A DNA stretch of 64,000 bases from Nitrososphaeraceae archaeon (GTDB taxonomy: Archaea; Thermoproteota; Nitrososphaeria; Nitrososphaerales; Nitrososphaeraceae), in the NCBI GenBank assembly GCA_044870765.1, contig JBIOZG010000002.1:1-64000 (forward strand), read 5' to 3'. Each line of letters opens with the position of its first letter. Positions within the stretch are counted from its first letter, which is position 1. The translations under genes were made by a program, and so were the position numbers. This document shows, in pieces, positions 4,448 to 28,662 of this stretch. Under the pieces are notes generated by a model. That model did not search any database and was not told where the DNA came from. It saw only the letters and a program-made list of their open reading frames with translations.

Positions 4448-5020
4448 TTGTCAAGAATTGTCGTTACAGGAAATCCAGGAGTTGGAAAACGTACACTCAG
4501 TAGTATGCTTTCAAAAAGATTAGGATTTAGAATAATCAATTTAAATGAATTTGTTATAAAAAATAGGCTTGTATTCACAGATAAGACATTAGACGTCTAT
4601 GATGTCTACCTAAAAAAGGCAACACTAATGCTTAGAAGGGAAATAAAGCAATATCAGGACGTAATTATTACGGGACACCTTGCTCCTTATTTGTTAATGC
4701 CCGATCAGGTTGATTTGGTCGTAGTTTTACGGTGTTCACCCGAAAATCTCTTGCAAACTTTTAAGAAAAGAAATTATGATTTGAGGAAAATAAGGGAAAA
4801 CATAACAAGCGAAATTCTAGGTATAACTTTGTATGATAGTATAAAAAAATTTGGTAAAGAAAAGATAATCGAGTTTGATACTACTACAACGCCCAGTAAA
4901 GAGACAATCAAACATTTAATCGAGGCTTTGAGTGATAAATCAAAAAGGAAAACTGAAAATATCGATTGGATGCCTACTTTAAAAGACAGGCAGGAAATAT
5001 TAAAATTAGTATCATATTAA
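4448..5020 (+). CDS. Adenylate kinase, AK6/Fap7 family
   Basis: VTGNPGVGK P-loop, IITGH motif, VVVLRC, KIRENITSEI, C-terminal IDW. Confidence 0.85.
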   Translation: MSRIVVTGNPGVGKRTLSSMLSKRLGFRIINLNEFVIKNRLVFTDKTLDVYDVYLKKATLMLRREIKQYQDVIITGHLAPYLLMPDQVDLVVVLRCSPENLLQTFKKRNYDLRKIRENITSEILGITLYDSIKKFGKEKIIEFDTTTTPSKETIKHLIEALSDKSKRKTENIDWMPTLKDRQEILKLVSY

Positions 5021-10361: not shown

Positions 10362-13300
10362 CTAAATGAAATCGATAATTGTGTGCTGATCTTTTATGTT
10401 TTGTTTAAAAAGTAAATTTAGTTCTGTTTGTAATGTGTTAATCCTGCTTGTCAGATATTCGTTTATCTTAAATTCAGAACAGATATTCAATGCAGTCTGT
10501 ACATATTTTTCAACGGACCCCCGTGTGACAGTTTGTAGCAATACATTATGACATTCCAGACATCGACCTGCAAGTGGCATTCGTCTGTATTTTTGTCCAC
10601 ATTTGGTACACCTAAATGATTGTGATGAATAAGCCCTTAAATTTCCCATTATATCCGGTAAAATATGGGTCGTTAATACCATGGACATTACTTCATCCGC
10701 GTCTACTGCGTTGATTAGTTTGGCTGTGCTTATCTGCATCTGTAGTTTTTCTTCCATAGTGCTCAGGGTTGAATACAAACTGTGTGATTCATCTAGCATA
10801 ATATTGTCCGTAGTATGAGTGAATTTATAATCAAAGAATTGATTTGGATGACCTAATCTTTTTTTGACAAGATCAATGTTGTCAAATAGAGTGGTTTTTT
10901 CCATATTCCAAGAAGATGTATAGAAATCCAATGGGTATCTTTCATCGACATCTATGTTATGGGCCTGCCTTTGAACTTCATGTGGAAATACCAGAGGTTG
11001 AATAAGTAAAGGTGCGTCCATTAGGCCACCAATTCTATCTGGCAAATATTCCTTTGAAAAGTTTAGAAAAATATCCATTAGTAACATTATAGAATCTGCG
11101 TCACCATCACAGTCTCTTCGTTTGGCAGAATGCCAGATTGGTGAACCTAGGCATACTTGGGAATTGACGAATCCAATTACTCTTCCGATTATACCTACCG
11201 ATGTGTGCGGTGCTAAACCAATAATAAAGTGTCCAATCAAGTCGTCAATTGAATCTATTTTATAAAACGCATCAAGTCCATAGAATCTAATGAGTTCTTC
11301 ATCTACGAACTGTGCAATTTTTACCAGGTGTTCAGCAGCGTGAATTGGGATTATTACATCCTGTATGAATAATTCTAGCAGTTGATCAGTTGACTCCAAG
11401 TTATTTCCTACATGGTCTCTATGATATCCCAGATCTCTTAATTTTGTAAAATCTGTCTTAATCCATTTGGGCTTAAAATGAGTTAGAGGTTCGTTTGTAG
11501 CATCGAAGCGTATAGTTCCATCCTTAAAAGTATACAAATTGTGCTTTTGCCTTAAGATACCTTTCTCTATCGGCTCTGCACATCGATTTTTGCCCATCAG
11601 GGATTTGACGCCTTTAAGTGGCTCTACTGGTTGTATTTCCAGATGTCTTTTGGCTTTTTCAACCGCTGCTTTTAGAGGATAATTGGTAGGCGAGTGTGTT
11701 TTTAGACGATTCCCGCAAATAGGACAATGTCCACTTGACTCCTCATCATTAACTTCATACCTACAAGTTGAGCACATTATTCGAATAGGTGTTTTAGAGA
11801 GACAATCTTGACAGACAACAGATATCGATGGAGATTTACAGTTGCTGCAAAATCTGTTAGCAATTTCAATATATAGTGGTCTTTGCATCGCTTTTAAAAT
11901 ATCCCTAGTTGGTCCGCCGTTTGTCCCAATTGGGAATAAGACATGAACAGGAGGTTTCATTTTCCTTTCTGCAGCCTTTTCCGGGCGTCCAACACGAACC
12001 GCGATTGAAGAAGAAAATTTTTCTTTTATACTAACATTTAGTAATTGGGAGATGACATATAAAATATGTGTCTTGGTAGAGTTTGGATCAGTGTCCAAGA
12101 CAAAGCTTGATTCCAAGAGTTTATTGATTTTTGATCCATAATCGATACACTTTACTATCAATTCCCTGAGTATGTAGAGTTGATCAGGATCGTCTATCGT
12201 TATTCTGTTGCCCTTAAGAGAAAGCGAATGAATTATCCCAAGTTTTTCAAGAGTTTCTTTTAGTTCGGAATCACAAAGTAAAGAAGCTCTCTCATTTGTA
12301 TTTTTTATCGACTCTCCACTTTCCATCAATTTCGTTATTAAATGGTTAAATTCATCTGGAGTTAACGCAGTCCAATAAAAAACATATCCAGGATAAAGAG
12401 GTATTTCGAAAAATTGACTAATCTTAAATGCTTCAATAATTGATGGTTTCTTTTCTAATGGATATTGGACTAATTCGGTTAGCCTTTCCCTATCAAATAT
12501 TTTAAAATATGAATCAGGGTCCTTGCTGGCAAGCTTACCTTCTAATTCCAGAGCCCAAATCTCTTCAACGTATGATGAAGGAAGAAGCTGGGTATTGTTT
12601 TCAAGAAAATCGCCGTAGCTTACTAGAATATCGCCTAGGTAAAGAATTTTTGTAACCTTACTTGCTATGGTTTTTGCTTGATTTAATGTTTCTATTTTCA
12701 TAACGCTTCCATCATTGAGTTTTACTATTGGTGGCTCGATACTGTCTACTAGCGCAATAGTGGAGGCCTTTCCTGGTGCGTCAATTTTTATTTGTGTGCC
12801 TACGGCAATTGCGTAGTTTAATAATATTGGAATGGTTGGGTGTATTCCGATTGTGGCAAATCCAGTATTGCAGCATCGACCATACCGTAATCTAAAACCG
12901 CCGATCTTTTTCTGCATTGAAAGAACAGGTCTTCCAGTGATGACTTCAGTCATCCTGTGGGATACAGTATCATCCTCTGCAGTTTGAATTGCTCCTTCAA
13001 GAGTTTTGAGCCACTCCCATCCTTCCAGTTTCAGGGTCTCTACAATCTTCAATAATTTTCTGCTTCTACCTATCAAGCCATCATTCATTACCCTTAATGC
13101 ACCTCCACGAACTCTGTTGGTAGAAACCCTTTGAAGATTCCGATGGCCCACGACTTCTACAGGATCCGTGTCAACACCATCAATTTCTACGGGAAGAGAA
13201 CTTACGCAATGGATGACATCCTTGTCTGAAACCTTAAACTGGAAACTTCCTACTTCTCTTTCATAAATCCTTAATTCTTCAACGTATCTACTAATTTCAT

Positions 13301-13859
13301 CGTCAAATGAATTTGCAATGTACTTGTCTAATCCTACAATTCTTCTGACGTGATCAGCTATCAGCATAGTTACGGCAGCTTCGGTTCCACCTGCGGATCT
13401 TATTGGACCAGCAAAAGAAACTGATAAATATTCAGATTTATTGGCATTTGTTTTTATTTTAACATCGTAGATTCCTTGTAGAGGAGCTACAGTAACACCT
13501 TCAGTTACAACGGATAGTCCGACTCTTACCGCATTGTTTAGTCTTTCTTCAATAGTGATTCCTCCGTATTTTCCAAGTACAATTTCCTCGGCTATCTTTA
13601 ATGCGGTTAATTCTTTTCCCAGTTCTGGCAGCAGTATTCTTAATCTACTGGAAATATCAATTTCGTGTATCTTTGCTATCCTGTCAGGTAAGTCATAACC
13701 TATCGGTGATTCAACTTTATCAGAAATATCGAGACCCTTTTTTTTAGCTTCTTGGGCTACAGAAACGGCGTCTTCAATATATTTTGAAATTTTTTGGTGA
13801 TATTTTATATAATATGATGGAATTTGAGTGTCCTGGTTATCTTTAGTATGATTAGTCAA
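10362..13859 (-). CDS. polC: DNA polymerase D large subunit DP2
   Basis: AGPIRSAGGT, GGFRLRYGR, HSAKRRDCDGDAD catalytic motif, GGLMDAPL, C-terminal Zn finger; no intein evident. Confidence 0.98.
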   Translation of the reverse strand: MTNHTKDNQDTQIPSYYIKYHQKISKYIEDAVSVAQEAKKKGLDISDKVESPIGYDLPDRIAKIHEIDISSRLRILLPELGKELTALKIAEEIVLGKYGGITIEERLNNAVRVGLSVVTEGVTVAPLQGIYDVKIKTNANKSEYLSVSFAGPIRSAGGTEAAVTMLIADHVRRIVGLDKYIANSFDDEISRYVEELRIYEREVGSFQFKVSDKDVIHCVSSLPVEIDGVDTDPVEVVGHRNLQRVSTNRVRGGALRVMNDGLIGRSRKLLKIVETLKLEGWEWLKTLEGAIQTAEDDTVSHRMTEVITGRPVLSMQKKIGGFRLRYGRCCNTGFATIGIHPTIPILLNYAIAVGTQIKIDAPGKASTIALVDSIEPPIVKLNDGSVMKIETLNQAKTIASKVTKILYLGDILVSYGDFLENNTQLLPSSYVEEIWALELEGKLASKDPDSYFKIFDRERLTELVQYPLEKKPSIIEAFKISQFFEIPLYPGYVFYWTALTPDEFNHLITKLMESGESIKNTNERASLLCDSELKETLEKLGIIHSLSLKGNRITIDDPDQLYILRELIVKCIDYGSKINKLLESSFVLDTDPNSTKTHILYVISQLLNVSIKEKFSSSIAVRVGRPEKAAERKMKPPVHVLFPIGTNGGPTRDILKAMQRPLYIEIANRFCSNCKSPSISVVCQDCLSKTPIRIMCSTCRYEVNDEESSGHCPICGNRLKTHSPTNYPLKAAVEKAKRHLEIQPVEPLKGVKSLMGKNRCAEPIEKGILRQKHNLYTFKDGTIRFDATNEPLTHFKPKWIKTDFTKLRDLGYHRDHVGNNLESTDQLLELFIQDVIIPIHAAEHLVKIAQFVDEELIRFYGLDAFYKIDSIDDLIGHFIIGLAPHTSVGIIGRVIGFVNSQVCLGSPIWHSAKRRDCDGDADSIMLLMDIFLNFSKEYLPDRIGGLMDAPLLIQPLVFPHEVQRQAHNIDVDERYPLDFYTSSWNMEKTTLFDNIDLVKKRLGHPNQFFDYKFTHTTDNIMLDESHSLYSTLSTMEEKLQMQISTAKLINAVDADEVMSMVLTTHILPDIMGNLRAYSSQSFRCTKCGQKYRRMPLAGRCLECHNVLLQTVTRGSVEKYVQTALNICSEFKINEYLTSRINTLQTELNLLFKQNIKDQHTIIDFI

Positions 13860-14602
13860 TTTCTTAATGTTTTGATGATGTTAGCAAATTCTGACTCCCA
13901 GTCTTTTTCTCTTTCAATCATAGTACCAATAACTATGATGTCTGCCCCCGCATCAGATATTTTTTTTGCCGTTTCCGCAGAATTAATCCCACCACCAACT
14001 ATCAATATTCCTTTATAGAATTTTTTTACGGTGCTTACCATTTCTGGTGGAATATTTTGTGATGCGCCGGATCCAGCTTCAAGATATAGAAATCGCATGC
14101 CCATATACAGAGCAGCCAGAGCGTACATTACTGCAATATTTGATTTGTTAAATGGGATGGACTTGGCTTGACCTATGAACCAGGCAGTAGACCCATCTCC
14201 AATTATGAGATAGCCGGTCGGAATGGCTTCTATATGATATTTATTTACAACTAAGGCTCCTTGCGCTTGGGCGCCTGTGATATAATATGGATTTTCGGAG
14301 TTTAGTAATGAGCTGAATAAAATTGCGTCCGCCGCTGGTGATATTCCTGTGATATTTCCTGGAAATAAAATAACAGGAATCTTGACATTCTTCTTTAATT
14401 CCGTCACAAAACTAGACAATTCAATTTGATCTGAAGTTGATGAGCCACCAACTAAAATTGCTGAAGCTCCTAGCTGTTCCAATTTTTTTGCTAGCTCTAT
14501 AGTCTTCGAGGAGTTTTCAGAGTCTATAAGTGGAAAACATAAAGTCTTTTGTCTCTTGATTTCATTCAAAATGTATTGTTCTGTGCTTTGTATTTCCATC
14601 AT
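13856..14602 (-). CDS. Geranylgeranylglyceryl phosphate synthase (GGGPS)
   Basis: ILVGGS, PVILFPG, LLNS, YLEAGSGA, VGGGI, GADIIVIGT. Confidence 0.95.
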   Translation of the reverse strand: MMEIQSTEQYILNEIKRQKTLCFPLIDSENSSKTIELAKKLEQLGASAILVGGSSTSDQIELSSFVTELKKNVKIPVILFPGNITGISPAADAILFSSLLNSENPYYITGAQAQGALVVNKYHIEAIPTGYLIIGDGSTAWFIGQAKSIPFNKSNIAVMYALAALYMGMRFLYLEAGSGASQNIPPEMVSTVKKFYKGILIVGGGINSAETAKKISDAGADIIVIGTMIEREKDWESEFANIIKTLRN

Positions 14603-14732
14603 TTCTCAAACTATTTACTCGTATAATAATAATCTCATCAGAGAATGTAGACAAGTCTTATACTCAACAGATATGACTCAAGGAATACAGTAAAATAAAT
14701 TAATTAGAGTACTATACAAATTAGTATAGTAT

Positions 14733-15101
14733 ATGGAAAACGACAATCTTAATTATACCTCAATTTTCAATCATTTTATTGAAAATTCTATATTTACAAA
14801 GAAACAAACATCAATTATTTATAATAAAATACTGCATGAAAAACGTGCCGGAAACATCTCTGCAGGTGCGTATTATCGACAATTAGGCCAGTGTAGAAAC
14901 AAGGTAAAAAGGACTGTTTACACACTATTGCTATTGCGACTGCTTAATGTGGTAGATGTGGAAACCTTTGCGATACTGAATCAATTGAACGACCAATTGA
15001 ATGTGATATTAAATAAACCTAGTCACGAAATTGATAACTCTACATTAAGTAATGTGATATCCTTGATGGATAATGTGATAAGAAAACTAGTTTTAATATA
15101 G
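14733..15101 (+). CDS. Hypothetical protein, HTH-like
   Basis: 122 aa ORF; FTKKQ...ISAGAYYRQLGQCRNKV resembles a LuxR/Tfx-type HTH. Confidence 0.65.
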   Translation: MENDNLNYTSIFNHFIENSIFTKKQTSIIYNKILHEKRAGNISAGAYYRQLGQCRNKVKRTVYTLLLLRLLNVVDVETFAILNQLNDQLNVILNKPSHEIDNSTLSNVISLMDNVIRKLVLI

Positions 15102-15143
15102 AAAAAATTTAATAAATGTCCATGTTTAATCACATGATATCAC

Positions 15144-15779
15144 ATGAATATATTGGGCTTCAATTTGGATTATTCATTATCCGATACTTTGATTTCAATG
15201 ATATTTTTAGTATTGTCCTTTTTCACCTTTTTGTATATTGGTTATTTCAGAGATATCAAAAGCCGGGATGAACGAGATTATAAGATGAAAGATATGTTGA
15301 TAGAGGGATATTTACACAAGTTCGATGAATATAACGAGATTATTTCCGAACTACGAAGTAAATTGGATGTGATTGATCAGAAGATCAATTCTGAAAAATA
15401 CATAATTAAGAAAAACGAACTTGCGGCAACTAACAAGTCTAGTGATACGGCCAATGATAGGTCACATAAAGCGATATCACATAATAGCATACCTGTGACT
15501 AAGAATTTGAATGTCACAGGAGAGGATATAGCATCTGAAGAGGAAGATTCCTCACGGGCGAATACAGTGGATTCGATTCTAAGGATGTTGGAAGTACCGT
15601 TAACTTCCAGAGAGATTCAAAGAAAAATTAACAAATCGCGTGAACATACCTCCAGATTGCTCAAAAGATTGTATTCGGAAAATATTGTCATGAGAGATGA
15701 GAGTGTCAGGCCTTACAAATATAAAATCACAGATGAAGGTCGTAGACTGTTGGAACAGGCAACAATTTCGGATGGTTAG
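15144..15779 (+). CDS. Membrane-anchored winged-helix (MarR-like) protein
   Basis: N-terminal TM (LISMIFLVLSFFTFLYIGYF), coiled coil, polar linker, C-terminal LTSREIQRKINKSREHTSRLLKRLYSENIV...YKITDEG. Confidence 0.8.
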   Translation: MNILGFNLDYSLSDTLISMIFLVLSFFTFLYIGYFRDIKSRDERDYKMKDMLIEGYLHKFDEYNEIISELRSKLDVIDQKINSEKYIIKKNELAATNKSSDTANDRSHKAISHNSIPVTKNLNVTGEDIASEEEDSSRANTVDSILRMLEVPLTSREIQRKINKSREHTSRLLKRLYSENIVMRDESVRPYKYKITDEGRRLLEQATISDG

Positions 15780-16248
15780 ATTTTTCTAAATATTCGCCAA
15801 TGTTGTTTTGGCTTTCTTTAACAACGGCATAAACCCATTGTTTGCCATTTTTTGATCTCGTAAGCTGTTTTTTCAGATAAAATCGTGACAAGTAGATAGA
15901 GGCGACACTTAGTTGGATAGAATCATAGTACATATCCTTGTAAATTTTTGCTAGATCAGAAGAGGTAAAGGTGTGATATCTAAAGTTCTCAGCAATCAAA
16001 TTCCATAACTTTGAGGCTAATTTTGTCTCGCCTTCTCTATGCTCTGAACTGGTATTAATAGAATTTTTTTCGAAGAGATGCACAAATTCAATTAGATTCA
16101 TTATCTTTTCTTTTGATAAAGTCCCTTGGAGAGTCAAGTTGTATTTTTCCCCATTTTCATCCTCCAGTTCGATTCTAATCTTTTTTCTTGAGACGGACAG
16201 AATGGGATTTGAAATCACATCACACTTAACATTTAAAGTGATTAACAA
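15727..16248 (-). CDS. Hypothetical winged-helix protein
   Basis: FTSSDLAKIY...LSVASIYLSRF...LTRSKNGKQWVY wHTH pattern; start uncertain. Confidence 0.7.
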   Translation of the reverse strand: MLITLNVKCDVISNPILSVSRKKIRIELEDENGEKYNLTLQGTLSKEKIMNLIEFVHLFEKNSINTSSEHREGETKLASKLWNLIAENFRYHTFTSSDLAKIYKDMYYDSIQLSVASIYLSRFYLKKQLTRSKNGKQWVYAVVKESQNNIGEYLEKSNHPKLLPVPTVYDLHL

Positions 16249-16320
16249 GCTAACAAAGAGCTCAGCTTTTGTTAACTAATTATCACGCAGTATTCGATCA
16301 TCATCATTGATGCAATTGTA

Positions 16321-16670
16321 GTTATCAATTTTGTGATAACCTTTATCAAATATTTTCCAGTAGAAATAAAGGGGTCATGTTGCTGTCTTTACATTGTAGA
16401 TATCTGTTAATCAGTCTGCATTGGAAATAAAGGGGTCATATCATGGAGTTTTTTCTACTTTTGAATTAACGAACATTAACAGTAATTAAGGCAGTTACTC
16501 CACCCCTGCATTTCTCATTGAAATTTTATTTGTCTCTCAACAAATAATAGAAATGATCAGAATTAACAAATAAATAAAAGAAAATTGATTTAGGCGTTTT
16601 TATTTTATATACATACCACTTACTAAATGAGTTTATTGTATTGAGATACAGGAGAAAAAGAGGGGTGCCG
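16321..16670. other. Replication origin oriC with ORB elements
   Basis: ORB-like TTCCAGTAGAAATAAAGGGGT (16355-16375, +), CTGCATTGGAAATAAAGGGGT (16416-16436, +), TTCAATGAGAAATGCAGGGGT (16502-16522, -), TACAGGAGAAAAAGAGGGGT (16647-16666, +); AT-rich spacers; directly upstream of cdc6. Confidence 0.88.
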
Positions 16671-16683
16671 GAGGCGTCTGTAA

Positions 16684-17916
16684 TTGGATGATGATGATGA
16701 TATATTAGATACTATTTTCGATAGCGCAATTAAGAATAAGAATATTATAAAAAACAGGCAAGTCCTGACTATAGATTATGTTCCTGATAAGCTATTATTC
16801 CGAACTAAGGAAAGCACTGCAATCGCACAATCCCTGTCTGTCATACTTAAAAAAGGGCGTCCGTCTAATTTGTTGATTTTTGGAAAACCTGGAACAGGAA
16901 AGACAGCTGTAGTAAAAAACGTTATTGACCACCTTTATAACAAGACCAAGCAACTTGACATTAACCTCCAAGTGCCATTTATTAACGCAAAGAATTCAAA
17001 CACACCGTATAAGATACTATATGAAATCGCTGAATTGCTTGGCATAAATAAAGAAGAAAAAAAAATGCAAGTTTTTTTTACAGGCCTGTCCATGAGCGAA
17101 GCCACTGACAGAATACTTGACTTCATAAAACGCAAGTCGATCAAGATTGTCCTTGTCATAGATGAAATAGATTCACTTGTCAATAAAAAAGGCGACGATA
17201 TTTTATATAACTTTACAAGAGCTAATGAAAGAATTTCTTCAGAACAATTCATTAGCTTGATTGGTATTTCGAATAGCTTAACTTTTAAGGATAAACTAGA
17301 CCCAAGAGTCAAGAGTAGTTTAAGCGAAGAAGAACTGGTTTTCAACCCATACACAATAGAACAATTAAAACAAATTTTAATTGACAGATGCAAACTTGCA
17401 TTATATGACAACGTCATTCCTAGTGGCGTTATCAATTTATGTGCTGCAATCGCCGGTAGAGAAACAGGCGATGCTCGAAAGGCCATTGACCTTTTGAGAG
17501 TTGCTGCTGAAATTGCAGAAAGATCAATGACAATGAAAATTTCAGAAGAACACATAAGACACGCGCAAAAGAAAATTGACAGCGACACCAACTTTGAGAT
17601 TTTGAGCAACTCAACTCTCCATACCAAATTGGTAATTCTTTCTACAATAAGATCTAAAAATGCAAGTACTGGAGAAATTTATTCAATCTATCAAAATTTT
17701 TGCTCAAGACTTCAACAGGAGCCATTAACTCAGAGGAGGATGACCCAAATTGTTGGAGAGTTGGATCAACTAGGATTGATAACGACCAATATTGTGAACC
17801 AGGGCCGGTACGGCAGGACCCAAAGAATAAAATTGCATATCCCCATTTCGTCTGTAAAGGAAGCTATTAGAAGTGATCCAATTCTGTCGCCTCTAATTCA
17901 TGACATTAATAATTGA
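16684..17916 (+). CDS. cdc6: Orc1/Cdc6 replication initiator
   Basis: GKPGTGKT Walker A, VIDEID Walker B, LDPRVKSSL, GDARKAIDLL, C-terminal wHTH with GRYGRT; TTG start. Confidence 0.97.
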   Translation: MDDDDDILDTIFDSAIKNKNIIKNRQVLTIDYVPDKLLFRTKESTAIAQSLSVILKKGRPSNLLIFGKPGTGKTAVVKNVIDHLYNKTKQLDINLQVPFINAKNSNTPYKILYEIAELLGINKEEKKMQVFFTGLSMSEATDRILDFIKRKSIKIVLVIDEIDSLVNKKGDDILYNFTRANERISSEQFISLIGISNSLTFKDKLDPRVKSSLSEEELVFNPYTIEQLKQILIDRCKLALYDNVIPSGVINLCAAIAGRETGDARKAIDLLRVAAEIAERSMTMKISEEHIRHAQKKIDSDTNFEILSNSTLHTKLVILSTIRSKNASTGEIYSIYQNFCSRLQQEPLTQRRMTQIVGELDQLGLITTNIVNQGRYGRTQRIKLHIPISSVKEAIRSDPILSPLIHDINN

Positions 17917-19426
17917 AATCTTTTTTAAGAGATTGAAGGGTTGCCAAATTGACTAATATACAAATCCCAGGAGTCGGCGTGATACCCATTGTTTGTTGAA
18001 ATTTTGTCTGTTTTTGCCATGCTCCAGAATTTACCATAAGCGTTCCCTTGTATCTCCCAACTTCGGTGATATGTACATGCCCGGCATGGAATATGTCAGG
18101 AACGTCATCTATCACCAACATGTCCTCGGACTCTGGAGCAATTGGAGTACGGTTGCCATATATTGGTGACAAATGTCTAGATTTCAATAAAATTTTCATT
18201 GCTTCCACAGGTTTTGAATAACTCAATCCTGGGACTGTAGCAATAACATCATCCAAACTCTGGCCATGGAACATCAACAACTTGACTTTGTTTAATTCAA
18301 CATATGAGGGGTTACCTAAAATACTAAAGTTTTCCAATGGTTGAAAATCACGCAAGTTTGTCAACGCAGTCTGCGGTAAGGCTCTTCTTCCAGGATCATG
18401 ATTACCCGGAATCAAAAACACATGCATCCTTTTGGGAATTTTTTGGAGTAGAGCCGCCGCATAAGACATTTGCTTGTTAATATTTATGTCGATTAGTTCT
18501 TTATCCTGATTAGGATAAATTCCTATTCCATCCACTATATCTCCTGCTATACAAACAAATTTGATTTTTCGTACAATTTCATCGTCATCTGAGGATAGCC
18601 AATTTACAAAGTCATTGAATTCACTCTCCATGAAATATTTGCTACCTACATGTAAATCTGAAATAAGGGCAACATACGACTCTGTTCCAGATTTTGACGC
18701 AACATGTTCTGGAATGTCGGGAAAAATAATATCTTTAATTACAAAATCAGTTGAATTCCTTTTACCAAGTGAAATTTCCAACATAAGCATTTGATCCAGG
18801 ACAAGCGTTGATGATTCATTGATAAGCTCCCTAGTTTTACATATCACGGGAATACTGCCAGTAGTATCATCAATGATCAGCTCTACATCATTTTTTCTAT
18901 TTCTCTTTGACATAACCAATCCAGCCACGAATGCAGAATCAAATGCTCTTCCCCTTTCATCCTCGCTCTCTGGAGAAGTGTACCTGGATTTATTCCTAAG
19001 ATCCTTAATTTGTTTTATTTTTCTTATTTGCCTACTTTCCGAACGTATTGATAAAATTTTCAAAGTTTTTCTGTATCGGCTATCAAATAATTTAACAAAA
19101 TCCTTGTCGTCTTGTGCGTTTATCTTATACGTAGGGTCAAAAATGATCTTGTAATTTTCGCCATTACTTTCTGAGTTAGTGTTAGCTATGACCCGTTCGT
19201 CGATATGATCGATATGATCATTATTGTCATTATCCCCAGAAATTGCACTTTTAATATCATCGATTAATATTGGTGACTTTTTTTTGAATTTATTTTTAGC
19301 ATCAACTATACTTTTGATTATTTTTTCAACATCACAATCAAGAGATTTTAGAAAGGCGAAGGCATCAGGATGAACTTGATATCCCTTATTTATCGCATAA
19401 ATCAATGCAATAGAAACTGAATCCAA
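17906..19426 (-). CDS. polB: DNA polymerase D small subunit DP1 (proofreading exonuclease)
   Basis: OB fold, SDLHVGS, GDIVDGIGIYPNQ, PGNHD, HLSP, GHVH, NSGAWQ. Confidence 0.97.
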   Translation of the reverse strand: MDSVSIALIYAINKGYQVHPDAFAFLKSLDCDVEKIIKSIVDAKNKFKKKSPILIDDIKSAISGDNDNNDHIDHIDERVIANTNSESNGENYKIIFDPTYKINAQDDKDFVKLFDSRYRKTLKILSIRSESRQIRKIKQIKDLRNKSRYTSPESEDERGRAFDSAFVAGLVMSKRNRKNDVELIIDDTTGSIPVICKTRELINESSTLVLDQMLMLEISLGKRNSTDFVIKDIIFPDIPEHVASKSGTESYVALISDLHVGSKYFMESEFNDFVNWLSSDDDEIVRKIKFVCIAGDIVDGIGIYPNQDKELIDININKQMSYAAALLQKIPKRMHVFLIPGNHDPGRRALPQTALTNLRDFQPLENFSILGNPSYVELNKVKLLMFHGQSLDDVIATVPGLSYSKPVEAMKILLKSRHLSPIYGNRTPIAPESEDMLVIDDVPDIFHAGHVHITEVGRYKGTLMVNSGAWQKQTKFQQTMGITPTPGICILVNLATLQSLKKDFNY

Positions 19427-25026: not shown

Positions 25027-26055
25027 ATGGGCTTAGATCTCAAACCAATTCTGACTTATACGAACATAAAGTTAGATGATCTTACAAATAAAATAATTGC
25101 AGTTGATGCTTTCAATACTATCCACCAATTTCTATCTACAATTCGAGGATCTACCGGGGAACTTCTTACTAATTCTCAAGGAGAGGTAACCAGTCACTTG
25201 AGCGGCTTATTCTATCGTAATATCAATTTACTTGCAGAAGGTATCAAACTTGTTTATGTCTTTGACGGAGTATCTAGTCCTCTAAAAGTTAATGAAATCC
25301 AACGCAGACATCAAATTAAAGAAGTAGCTGCTGAAAAATATGAGAAAGCACTCGTCGAAGGGAAATTGGAAGAAGCAAGAAAATATAGTCAAGCAACATC
25401 AGTTCTGACCGACAAAATGATAGACGAATCTAAGAGGTTGCTCTCTTTTTTGGGAATACCAACAATACAAGCTCCGTCAGAAGGTGAAGCAACAGCGTCA
25501 AATCTAACCAACTCTGATCTAGTCCATATTTGTGCAAGTCAGGATTATGATTCCATATTATTCGGTGCAAAACGACTGGTAAGAAATGTAACAATAAGTG
25601 GTAAAAGAAAAGTTCCCAATAGGAACGCCTACATTGATGTCCCTTTAGAAATGTATTACCTTGAAGATATACTCAAGCAAACTAAATTAACAATTGAACA
25701 AATGGTTGATGTAGGAATTTTAATAGGAACGGATTATAACTTTGGCGGCATATCAGGAATAGGACCGAAGACTGCATTGAAATTAATTCAAAAATATTCA
25801 AAACTGGAAAACATAGACCAACTTCAAGAACCATTATCTAATATTCCATACGAAGAGATTAGGGAAATATTCTTGAAACCAAGAGTCGCGAATGTTAGTA
25901 CTGAAGACATTAAATTTGAGTCCGTTGGATATGACAAGATAGTACAATTTTTGTGTAGTGAAAGGAATTTCTCATTAGATCGTGTTAATTCCGCATTACA
26001 AAAAGTTCAAGATTCAGATAAGAATAAGAACCAGTCACTGGAAAAGTGGTTCTAG
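25027..26055 (+). CDS. fen: Flap endonuclease 1
   Basis: AVDAFN, TSHLSGLFYR, VFDG, APSEGEA, SQDYD, GTDYN, GIGPKTA, PIP box QSLEKWF. Confidence 0.97.
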   Translation: MGLDLKPILTYTNIKLDDLTNKIIAVDAFNTIHQFLSTIRGSTGELLTNSQGEVTSHLSGLFYRNINLLAEGIKLVYVFDGVSSPLKVNEIQRRHQIKEVAAEKYEKALVEGKLEEARKYSQATSVLTDKMIDESKRLLSFLGIPTIQAPSEGEATASNLTNSDLVHICASQDYDSILFGAKRLVRNVTISGKRKVPNRNAYIDVPLEMYYLEDILKQTKLTIEQMVDVGILIGTDYNFGGISGIGPKTALKLIQKYSKLENIDQLQEPLSNIPYEEIREIFLKPRVANVSTEDIKFESVGYDKIVQFLCSERNFSLDRVNSALQKVQDSDKNKNQSLEKWF

Positions 26056-27736: not shown

Positions 27737-27879
27737 AATACTAATACAAAATTGTCCTTATACATATTTATTCAGTATAGTAATTTTCAAGTATCGGTTC
27801 ATCAAGTTTTAAAACATCTACTAAATTATTGATTATTTTTAACAATGCCATCATTATATCCATATATCGACACATTCTC

Positions 27880-28662
27880 ATGAGCGATATAAAGCTCGAA
27901 TTTGTAGGAAAGCAAGTAAAAGATATGTACGGTGCATACGTGGGAAAAGTAATTGGTTTAGTTACTGATATCGATGGTTCCATCGAGTCGGTCGGCGTGG
28001 ACTGTGGTTCAATCGGACTAAAACAGCTATTATATGAACAACTGCTCGTTCAAGGGGACTACGTGATTTTTATACCAAGGTGGCGTATGGAAGCACAAAA
28101 ACTGCTTAGACAGAAGAGTCTTACAATCAAGAGGGTTAAGGCGCTTGAGAACTTGGTTGAAGAAAACGATCTAATGAAAGATGATGCTGAAGTTTTGCAT
28201 TTAATATATGAGAAGAGACTCGTTGATTTGGAAAACAATGAACAAGACGTCATAAATGCTTTGAATTCAAGACTACAAGAGTTGGATTCACAGAGTACAA
28301 CTATCAAAACCATAATTTTCGATGCAAAATTGCAGTACAGAAGTAATGATATTGCTGAAGACACTTATCAACAAATCAATACAAATTCAATCGAATTACT
28401 AGATCGAATTAAGCTAGAAAAAGATGAAATAACTAGCTTTCTCTCAAGAATTACTCAACCATACATAGAAGCTCCCACTGTTGAATTTGAAGAGACAAAA
28501 ATTGAAAGTCAGGAGATTATTGACGAAGTTAGTGAGGCGGAGCCTATCTCTGAGGATATTAATAACAATGAAAAACAAGAATCAGCCACATCAGAAGATG
28601 TGCAGAATGATGAGGCGGAGAGTAATTGGCTCAATGAAGTGCTTACAAGAGATACAGCATAA
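27880..28662 (+). CDS. cdvA: Cell division protein CdvA
   Basis: FVGKQVKDMYG..GKVIG PRC-barrel N-terminus, long coiled coil, acidic tail; ATG at 27880 preferred to the ORF-track start 27829. Confidence 0.85.
   Translation: MSDIKLEFVGKQVKDMYGAYVGKVIGLVTDIDGSIESVGVDCGSIGLKQLLYEQLLVQGDYVIFIPRWRMEAQKLLRQKSLTIKRVKALENLVEENDLMKDDAEVLHLIYEKRLVDLENNEQDVINALNSRLQELDSQSTTIKTIIFDAKLQYRSNDIAEDTYQQINTNSIELLDRIKLEKDEITSFLSRITQPYIEAPTVEFEETKIESQEIIDEVSEAEPISEDINNNEKQESATSEDVQNDEAESNWLNEVLTRDTA

Follow-up and report, generated by a model that had tools for sequence, protein, structure and literature searches.

A recent preprint describes the Staphylococcus aureus protein RicO as an origin anchor required for segregation, in which a DNA-binding domain is combined with a coiled coil and a membrane helix (bioRxiv 10.64898/2026.03.06.710092). 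In archaea, the sites of SegB and of AspA, the latter being a winged-helix protein, are reported to lie upstream of their own cassettes (PMC5120986), while the sites of archaeal repressors, as summarised for TrmB-type regulators, usually lie between the TATA box and the start, with TGM (TATCAC-N5-GTGATA) given as the operator of TrmBL1/Tgr (PMC4158304). At Sulfolobus origins a further motif, ucm, is reported to be essential and to be recognised by a protein that is not an initiator, and the same source describes the ucm-binding protein UBP as a 111-amino-acid (aa), beta-rich nucleoid protein with a saddle fold, which has hundreds of genomic sites and contacts MCM (PMC12141716). For Nitrosopumilus, origin mapping is credited to Pelve et al. 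2013 (as cited in PMC4010727 and PMC5797428). Here, we analysed a locus of a Nitrososphaeraceae archaeon, an ammonia oxidiser of soil (GenBank assembly GCA_044870765.1; 2,015,293 bases, 59 contigs, 36% G+C) at which three small genes, called g1, g2 and g3, carry a dense field of the word ATGTGAT (ATCACAT on the opposite strand; core TGTGAY/RTCACA) and lie beside a predicted replication origin and its orc1/cdc6 initiator gene. All positions are those of the window, the stretch of 64,000 nucleotides at the start of the 71.5-kb contig JBIOZG010000002.1.

A dense and conserved site field over three small genes

The trio consists of g1 (14733-15101, plus strand, an open reading frame (ORF) of 122 aa), g2 (15144-15779, plus strand, an ORF of 211 aa) and g3 (ORF 15727-16248, minus strand, convergent with g2 and 173 aa long as an ORF, its conserved core ending near 16200). 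An earlier reading of this DNA from its letters alone (the sequence-only reading) had counted 15 TGTGAY/RTCACA sites in 15001-16337, eight of them exact ATGTGAT/ATCACAT, and our recount returned exactly these numbers. The exact word occurs 19 times in the window, with eight of the copies within 15001-16220, and 344 times in the genome, that is, 0.17 per kb; the 0.23 copies expected per 1340 bases on this count, against eight exact copies seen, bear out the claim that the field is far above expectation. No other place in the genome is as dense: the locus is the densest 1340-base window for the 7-mer, the runner-up holding three copies, and for TGTGAY (1615 copies genome-wide, 1.07 expected per interval) the 15 copies seen compare with seven at the second-densest place. 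The post-hoc choice of the word was controlled by scoring every 7-mer in 2915 half-overlapping 1340-base windows, upon which the interval 15001-16340 gave a Poisson P of 1.5e-10 for its best 7-mer; 19 of the 2915 grid windows hold a more extreme word, several of these being overlapping pairs and one place having 22 copies. The field is rare, yet not unique in kind. A wider g2 regulon was also sought, and neither a second field nor recurrent close site pairs were found elsewhere in the genome, in which 21 site pairs lie within 40 bases of each other, three at the locus and the other 18 scattered. In a complete genome from another family of the order (G032), six of the 89 copies of GATGTGATR fall inside 408 bases at the trio, with no other cluster.

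Conservation in relatives points in the same direction. In an alignment of 17 loci of the genus, with G020 (locus L002, unpublished) left out of the figures relied on, seven of the eight exact sites recur at the same position in 11-16 of 15-16 loci, against a background in which all 1684 7-mers of the locus are kept at a mean of 20% and a median of 7%. Three of the conserved sites, all in one orientation, lie at the 3' end of g1, at 15001-15007, 15052-15058 and 15073-15079 (plus strand), where the exact 7-mer is kept in 13, 11 and 14 of 16 loci, respectively. At the g1-g2 junction, the repeat ATCACATGATATCACATG (15129-15146, minus strand) is present as the sequence-only reading had it; this tandem pair, with sites 10 bases apart and the second overlapping the ATG of g2, is the longest conserved block of the locus, the 7-mer being kept in 16/16 loci at 15129 and in 13/16 at 15139, and both in 16/16 as RTCACA. 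The pair lies ~12 bases downstream of the TATA-like box TTTAATAAAT (15108-15117, plus strand), which stands ~32 bases before the g2 start in a region conserved in the genus alignment and is the putative g2 promoter.

A further four to six conserved sites, in mixed orientation, lie in the DNA of the g2 linker. Those at 15461 (minus), 15476 (minus), 15494 (plus) and 15513 (minus), spanning 15461-15518, do read SH, SH, VT and VT as had been noted, and are kept as TGTGAY/RTCACA in 11, 14, 12 and 6 of 16 loci, respectively. Just upstream of the g3 core, and downstream of a TATA-like TTTAAAT on the g3 strand, two overlapping sites, ATCACATCACA (16214-16224, minus strand), are kept in 12/15 and 9/15 loci. 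By contrast with these, the site at 15367 is kept in 1/16 genus loci; the palindrome GTTATCA-N6-TGATAAC (16322-16341), reported just before the first origin recognition box (ORB), is present, but conserved in its left arm TGTAGTTATCA only, the right arm and the TGTGAT at 16332 being kept in 0/14. About a dozen sites lie within 1.2 kb, and the sites of the field stand 0.1-1.4 kb from the first ORB box.

The codons used at the coding sites are telling. Each of the three g1 sites reads as the tripeptide N-V-I, and the Val codon there is GTG in 44 of 48 cases (42 of 45 without G020), compared with a GTG share of 13.9% across 576 long ORFs of this genome and with 20 of 105 cases at the remaining Val positions of g1. 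The g2 linker is otherwise variable, its sole conserved residues being the site-encoded ones; there, Ser before His/Gln is TCA in 30 of 31 cases (28% elsewhere in g2), and GTG accounts for 29 of the 30 Val codons in PV[TMAI] and [DSN]V[IM] (30% elsewhere in g2). Outside coding DNA the word is present as well, at 15129-15143 and 16214-16224. Because the sites are kept in place, partly against codon bias, we conclude that the DNA itself is under selection. Additionally, the sites within the linker have expanded in relatives: in L028 (1367-1402) four tandem 9-base site units code for (SDI)4, and in L020 a tandem duplication of ~23 codons covers the site-bearing stretch and doubles the SH sites.

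The array follows g2, and the trio adjoins cdc6

Twenty distant loci, from other families of the phylum, were picked from the match list of a g3 profile for family spread, with their motif content unseen. A g2 homologue is present in 11 of them, and cdc6 within 5 kb in 12. The densest kilobase holds 5-11 TGTGAY sites in the 11 loci with g2 and 1-3 in the nine without it, a complete separation (Mann-Whitney P = 8e-5, which is overstated because the relatives are not independent), and a control word gave no separation of the two groups. The nine g2-less loci include L054 and L063, in which g1 and g3 are present, and four with cdc6 and g3. In L052 and L062, furthermore, g1-g2 stand ~3 kb from g3/cdc6, and the field stays with g1-g2. 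We therefore have to amend the proposal of the sequence-only reading that the array is bound by the wHTH proteins of the trio, since among the 20 distant loci it is present solely where g2 is present. The ATGTGAT array, as far as these comparisons reach, is tied to g2 and not to g1, g3, cdc6 or the ORBs, and its staying with g2 where g2 is displaced from cdc6 marks it as the apparent site field of g2 rather than a part of oriC.

On the far side of g3 lies the predicted origin (16354-16669), with four ORB-like boxes, at ~16354-16378 (plus), 16421-16439 (plus), 16500-16521 (inverted) and 16645-16669 (plus), around an AT-rich stretch, as read from the sequence and the 17-locus genus alignment. 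Its function as an origin is predicted from these repeats adjoining the orc1/cdc6 gene (16684-17916, plus strand; Pfam Cdc6_lid 2e-23, Cdc6_C 2e-22, AAA domains). Of 41 genomes searched with g2, 38 have it, among them 23 of 24 in the genus and 14 of 16 that represent other families of the order, and across the 30 order loci from this search the gene order pcrB, g1, g2, g3, ORB, cdc6 recurs. The linkage of the trio to cdc6/oriC, as first put forward, holds well, with cdc6 adjoining g3 in 25 of the 30. Among the five exceptions, three loci stop short at the end of a contig or locus; in G036, a one-contig genome with the trio at the contig end and cdc6 at 151-1347, the two genes adjoin across that end; and in G032 they are 3 kb apart. 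The genome G032 is likewise of one contig, and there the stretch from g3 to the ORB/cdc6 region holds two inserted genes, one a small ORF and the other longer and on the opposite strand (L025 2253-3342, L031/L032), so that the trio stands 3 kb from cdc6.

Predicted proteins, accompanying motifs and gene neighbourhood

The g2 protein had been read as a transmembrane (TM) segment, a coiled coil and a C-terminal winged helix-turn-helix (wHTH), and this architecture is upheld in part, the membrane and heptad portions appearing by simple sequence measures only and the winged helix as sub-threshold Pfam matches. Residues 15-33 form the predicted TM segment (Kyte-Doolittle 19-residue maximum 2.17), followed by R/K-rich sequence, and a hydrophobic N-terminal segment is found in 24/24 aligned orthologues. 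Ahead of the segment stand ~14 residues, predicted to lie outside, and therefore no sensor domain is visible in g2. All eight a/d positions of a heptad stretch (28 residues, 54-83) are hydrophobic, and a polar low-complexity linker comes next. The C-terminal winged helix (residues 145-205) gives sub-threshold matches to TrmB, MarR and HTH_27 (E 4e-4 to 0.04); the PF01978 match covers residues 150-197, the protein ends 14 residues later, and no C-terminal effector (sugar-binding) domain was found in g2. The recognition helix SREHTxR (R166, E167, H168, T169, R171) is invariant in 24 orthologues of 21-85% identity, which would fit the constant TGTGAY core across the phylum. A two-copy fold prediction for residues 40-211, with a 24-row alignment, scored 0.02 and says nothing either way, and a protein atlas returned 'hypothetical protein' clusters, with MarR/TrmB labels on Bathyarchaeota relatives.

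For g1, the AlphaFold2 model is all-helical, with five helices (pLDDT 81). Its orthologues are found across the order, and the hydrophobic xVI pattern is kept even where families use other residues. The description of g1 as HTH-like is unproven, the protein having no Pfam or NCBIfam family and, by Foldseek of the model, no PDB fold match; the atlas gave 'hypothetical protein' clusters and a weak Sigma70_r4 lead (score 0.84, 14% of members), nothing useful. Sequence profiles of NCBIfam and PDB likewise gave nothing useful for g1, g2 or g3, and no relative of any of the three was found in Pfam, in NCBIfam or among solved structures.

The conserved core of g3 (15727-16200, minus strand) starts near ..LS(V/T)(S/A)RKKI(R/K)IELED. 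In the predicted model a C-terminal winged helix (pLDDT ~90) follows a less certain N-terminal beta-hairpin and helix, and Foldseek matched the winged helix to RosR, PadR and ArsR types (E ~1.5e-3), both of which support the reading of g3 as a wHTH protein. A profile search placed the family in 198 of 301 sampled genomes of the phylum; a second one gave 3159 proteins at E <=1e-5, and all those named among the 120 listed are called 'hypothetical protein', while the matches listed include proteins 67-78% identical labelled 'Nitrososphaeraceae archaeon'. The first 17 codons of the 173-aa ORF are probably not translated, as they contain a stop in two relatives of the genus and three in two more divergent ones (L011, L020, L021, L023). 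With these stops upstream of the core, the site at 16214-16220, which also lies upstream of the core, is therefore not shown to be coding DNA, and we infer that it occupies the promoter position of g3. In L011 and L020 there is no ATG, GTG or TTG between the stop and RKKI(K/R)IELED, the aligned genus loci share a conserved CTG five codons ahead of RKK, and the length that gene callers assign to g3 ranges from 163 to 225 aa. The tail ..(P)TVYDL(H/L)(L/Q) (15727-15765), following a variable stretch, is found in the genus and its nearer relatives (L021-L023, L028) and is absent from the g3 of other families; a partner protein could perhaps dock on this short peptide.

Contigs assembled from RNA libraries (four runs; 93-100% alike) cover g1 (one run), g2 and g3. 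One of them spans the non-coding origin, so that DNA carry-over is possible, and such contigs cannot show transcription starts. In two runs a contig ends at 16149, inside the conserved g3 core, which we read as an assembly break.

Two further motifs accompany the trio. Just upstream of the g1 start stands the inverted repeat TACTATAC..GTATAGTA (14709-14731), within which 14709-14719 is conserved in 85% or more of the genus loci; at the same place before g1, the locus of G032 (L025, ~683-706) has TAGCTAT-N10-ATAGCTA. This repeat, a motif different from ATGTGAT, has the look of a third, separate operator and may be g1's own. Upstream of g3, the highly conserved block 16226-16275 contains three TTAACA (16226 plus, 16242 plus, 16270 minus), and (G)TTAACA recurs among the ORB-like boxes at 16405, 16476 and 16563, TTAACA being kept in the 17 genus loci; in the distant loci L058, L059 and L046, TTAACA clusters lie between cdc6 and g3. 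We regard TTAACA as a second motif family and a candidate set of g3 sites in the origin itself. The thought of three binders with three motifs is attractive, the evidence examined being that for g2 alone. Right beside cdc6 in three distant families, at L045 (~3695), L046 (~4484) and L051 (~3075), there are clusters of a different word, TGTGAA, with 6-10 copies per kb, which are probably the ORB-type boxes of that lineage.

The wider neighbourhood of the origin holds cell-cycle genes. Both subunits of PolD flank the trio and origin, the large one (10362-13859, minus strand, Pfam DP2 domains) followed by the PcrB/GGGP synthase gene pcrB (13856-14602, minus strand, Pfam scan) and the small one (17906-19426, minus strand, Pfam) following cdc6, and beyond them come FEN1/XPG (25027-26055) and a CdvA-like division gene (27829-28662). 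The statement that no ParA/SegA ATPase is visible here agrees with our Pfam scan, in which no ParA/SegA-type ATPase (CbiA/ParA/AAA_31) was found among 24 ORFs of at least 130 aa in 48-28662, a set that left out three overlapping antisense ORFs and, g1 excepted, all ORFs below 130 aa. The sole small P-loop match in the scanned ORFs was AAA_18/dNK at 4448-5020.

Proposed role of g2 and comparison with known systems

The array, the selection acting on its DNA, its tie to g2 and its linkage to cdc6 are direct observations, and from them we lean, with modest confidence, towards the reading that the field is g2's own site array, serving self-repression plus the docking of origin-flanking DNA at the membrane. 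In this scenario, g2 would cross the membrane once, with a short tail on the outside and, after the TM segment, a heptad stretch and a flexible linker leading to a winged helix in the cytoplasm. It would bind TGTGAY sites and, once bound, shut off its own gene and g3 in a negative feedback. Since two sites lie over the g2 start and one just upstream of g3, g2 probably represses both, and since the best-conserved sites at both genes come after a TATA-like box and before the gene start, self-control would be at least part of the function. The ~dozen sites in 1.2 kb could gather many g2 molecules on one locus, and, g2 being fixed in the membrane, the binding would pin the origin-flanking DNA there, so that a stretch ending ~100 bases from the first ORB box would be held at the membrane. 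The anchoring of origin-near DNA may thus be fairly inferred, on condition that g2 sits in the membrane and binds its sites. What had first been noticed is confirmed as an observation, and its interpretation, an array that anchors oriC or regulates initiation, is partly supported: the conserved array, the linkage to ORB/cdc6 and the predicted membrane wHTH speak for it, while its segregation component would be hypothetical, with no partition ATPase among the nearby ORFs scanned. A bolder version, rather unlikely in our judgement, would make the module an archaeal, motor-free, centromere-like anchor from origin to membrane, conserved from the ammonia oxidisers to other classes of the phylum, in which g2 and its field, together with g3 and its candidate TTAACA sites, would couple the position or firing of the origin to the envelope; the co-translational insertion of g2 beside its own gene might then help to fix the locus to the membrane.

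Several observations weigh against the combination of self-repression and docking. The winged helix of g2 stays below the Pfam gathering score (TrmB PF01978, 20.4-20.5 bits against a cut-off of 25.6), and the assignment of the sites to g2 rests on co-occurrence among related, non-independent genomes, in which, moreover, g1 was detected beside g2 in nine of the 11 distant loci with g2. An origin-directed role is not demanded by these comparisons, since the array has moved along with g1-g2 where these stand away from g3/cdc6, and three of these 11 loci have no cdc6 within 5 kb. The sites at 15726 and 15972 lie in strongly conserved protein segments and are inseparable from protein constraint. 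Dimeric winged-helix regulators usually read palindromes, and most of the sites here are single half-sites in mixed orientation, not palindromes. Finally, the five upstream sites show no significant helical phasing (for periods of 10-11 bases the resultant is 0.55-0.65, where five random points average 0.41 and 3.5% of them reach 0.8), and the idea of phasing was dropped as lying within chance for five points.

The simplest competing account takes the field as a plain operator cluster, with which g2 (perhaps together with g1) represses g2 and g3, with no structural or origin role; the many sites would just sharpen the feedback, and the anchor would serve regulation, through proteolytic release or sequestration, rather than positioning. 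This is possible, if on the doubtful side. The placement of the best-conserved sites between TATA-like boxes and the g2 and g3 starts suits it well, as does the lack of any other field in the genome, which fits a local autoregulator, and so does an array that follows g2 rather than the origin, with the three distant g2 loci that lack a nearby cdc6. One or two sites would suffice for such control, however, and about a dozen are kept, several of them coding, against codon preference and expanded in relatives; the ~14 outside residues of g2 offer no visible sensor domain, and the locus stays beside ORB/cdc6 across the order. A membrane-fixed DNA binder, besides, would place its DNA at the membrane anyway, so that this account differs from ours in purpose and not in physics. 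It is improbable, in our estimation, that the field is instead a centromere-like array for chromosome segregation, a counterpart of parS/ParB or SegB without a ParA-type motor, in which sister origins would be membrane-anchored. Dense arrays at the binder's own gene are typical of partition systems, g2 joins a membrane anchor and a DNA-binding domain as the S. aureus RicO is described to do (10.64898/2026.03.06.710092), the oriC linkage holds across the order, and the CdvA division gene is 11 kb away. Against these stand the lack of a ParA/SegA-type ATPase among the 24 ORFs scanned in 48-28662, the lack of a ParB/SegB family match for g2 (PF08775, E 0.95), the location of the sites within 1.2 kb on one side of the origin, and an array that keeps to g2 where g2 is displaced from cdc6.

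The four ORB-like boxes so close by, together with the Sulfolobus motif ucm and its non-initiator reader (PMC12141716), raise the thought that the sites are accessory origin elements, mini-ORB-like or ucm-like, read by Orc1/Cdc6 or another replication factor independently of the trio. We hold this for very unlikely: ATGTGAT is unlike the four boxes of the locus and is found neither between nor beside them, the nearest conserved sites being those at 16214-16224, and the motif that is interleaved with the ORBs, TTAACA, is a different word; furthermore, four distant loci with cdc6 and g3 but without g2 lack the field, while three g2 loci without cdc6 within 5 kb have it. Scarcely any credit can be given to chance, or to the thought that the field merely follows from repeated peptides (NVI, SH, VT) and has no role as DNA. 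It is true that 11 of the 15 TGTGAY sites lie in coding DNA of g1, g2 or g3, and that the hydrophobic xVI pattern of g1 is maintained as protein in families with other residues. The Poisson P of 1.5e-10, with 19 of 2915 windows more extreme for any 7-mer, argues otherwise, as does the presence of the field in further families and in the complete genome G032. Since the synonymous codons are fixed, the word stands also in non-coding DNA, invariant at both promoter-side positions, and relatives have expanded it, the chance and peptide-repeat readings are out, and we consider them refuted as far as an analysis of sequence goes.

What then would such a module mean? We know of no partition machinery in these Cdv-dividing archaea; to our knowledge, chromosome placement and separation in archaea beyond Sulfolobus is uncharted, and no partition system has been described for ammonia-oxidising archaea. 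The holding of origin-near DNA at the membrane by a self-controlling protein would be a role not yet described in archaea. No published description of the trio or the motif was found in the full-text literature, the supplementary motif and homologue tables of PMC12141716 and of the RicO preprint being outside that search. The candidate is narrowly defined, consisting of a single uncharacterised family of predicted membrane proteins, a short DNA word and one genomic target beside the origin, and its wide evolutionary conservation implies that cultivated relatives carry the module too. Even if g2 merely regulates itself, the locus would offer binding sites that are maintained within genes in spite of codon bias, together with three DNA binders beside the origin, each seemingly with its own motif.

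Among the membrane-bound regulators, ToxR and CadC have an N-terminal OmpR-type winged helix, a TM segment and a periplasmic sensor domain. As generally understood, they resemble g2 as regulators with one TM segment that bind promoter DNA at the membrane; the order in g2 is reversed (TM 15-33, winged helix 145-205), with its ~14 residues outside, and a topology of the ToxR/CadC type was accordingly rejected for g2, on the reversed domain order and the absence of a visible sensor. The UBP/ucm pair, as far as its description goes, is similar to what is proposed for this locus in having a short conserved motif, within an archaeal origin or next to it, that is recognised by a protein other than the initiator, and it compares better with g3 and the ORB-interleaved TTAACA than with g2. 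Unlike UBP with its many sites, g2 has one local field, and g2 and g3 are predicted winged-helix proteins; membership of the UBP family was rejected, the g3 model consisting of a beta-hairpin, helices and a winged helix with RosR/PadR/ArsR matches, and g1 being all-helical.

The TrmB regulators, as summarised in PMC4158304, share more with g2: they are archaeal winged-helix binders, their half-site GTGATA resembles the (T)GTGAT(A) core, and their sites at or downstream of the TATA box, with autoregulation, recall the arrangement proposed here. The TGM operator, however, is an inverted pair with a 5-base spacer, whereas the g2 sites are mostly single, and the likeness of the motifs may be a coincidence. 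The g2 protein, in addition, scores below the gathering threshold, has no C-terminal effector domain and carries a TM anchor; with its PF01978 match below the cut-off, the domain in C-terminal position and no effector domain, g2 was rejected as a member of the TrmB family.

The partition proteins ParB (parS), Sulfolobus SegB and pNOB8 AspA are described as having repeated sites at or in the binder's cassette, possibly as operators (PMC5120986), and in this they are like g2; with 15 TGTGAY in 1.34 kb, conserved in place, the locus has the cis-array that marks ParABS and SegAB. Their sites, in the accounts available, are one or two long palindromes, whereas those of g2 are short half-sites in mixed orientation, and g2 lacks a nearby Walker ATPase partner and is (by prediction) membrane-anchored. 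In the family comparison, which covered ParB-named Pfam models but no SegB model as such, g2 gave PF08775 at E 0.95, and g1 and g3 gave no ParB-named Pfam match. A ParABS/SegAB cassette is thereby ruled out, there being no ATPase among the 24 ORFs and no likeness to ParB/SegB.

It is RicO with its ricS sites that offers the closest working analogue, a likeness in working principle, origin-to-membrane anchors of the RicO/RacA kind being grouped by function and not by sequence. RicO is bacterial, with an N-terminal DNA-binding domain and a C-terminal amphipathic helix, where in g2 the predicted TM segment comes first and the winged helix last, and its nine ricS sites are spread over ~700 kb around oriC, where g2 has about a dozen in 1.2 kb on its own gene; the function of RicO, as reported, is shown by experiment, and that of g2 is predicted. 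Nevertheless, according to the preprint, RicO binds specific DNA sequences through one domain and also has a coiled-coil part and an element that attaches to the membrane, a combination likewise predicted for g2, and in both systems the sites lie close to the origin and the proposed outcome is origin DNA at the membrane.

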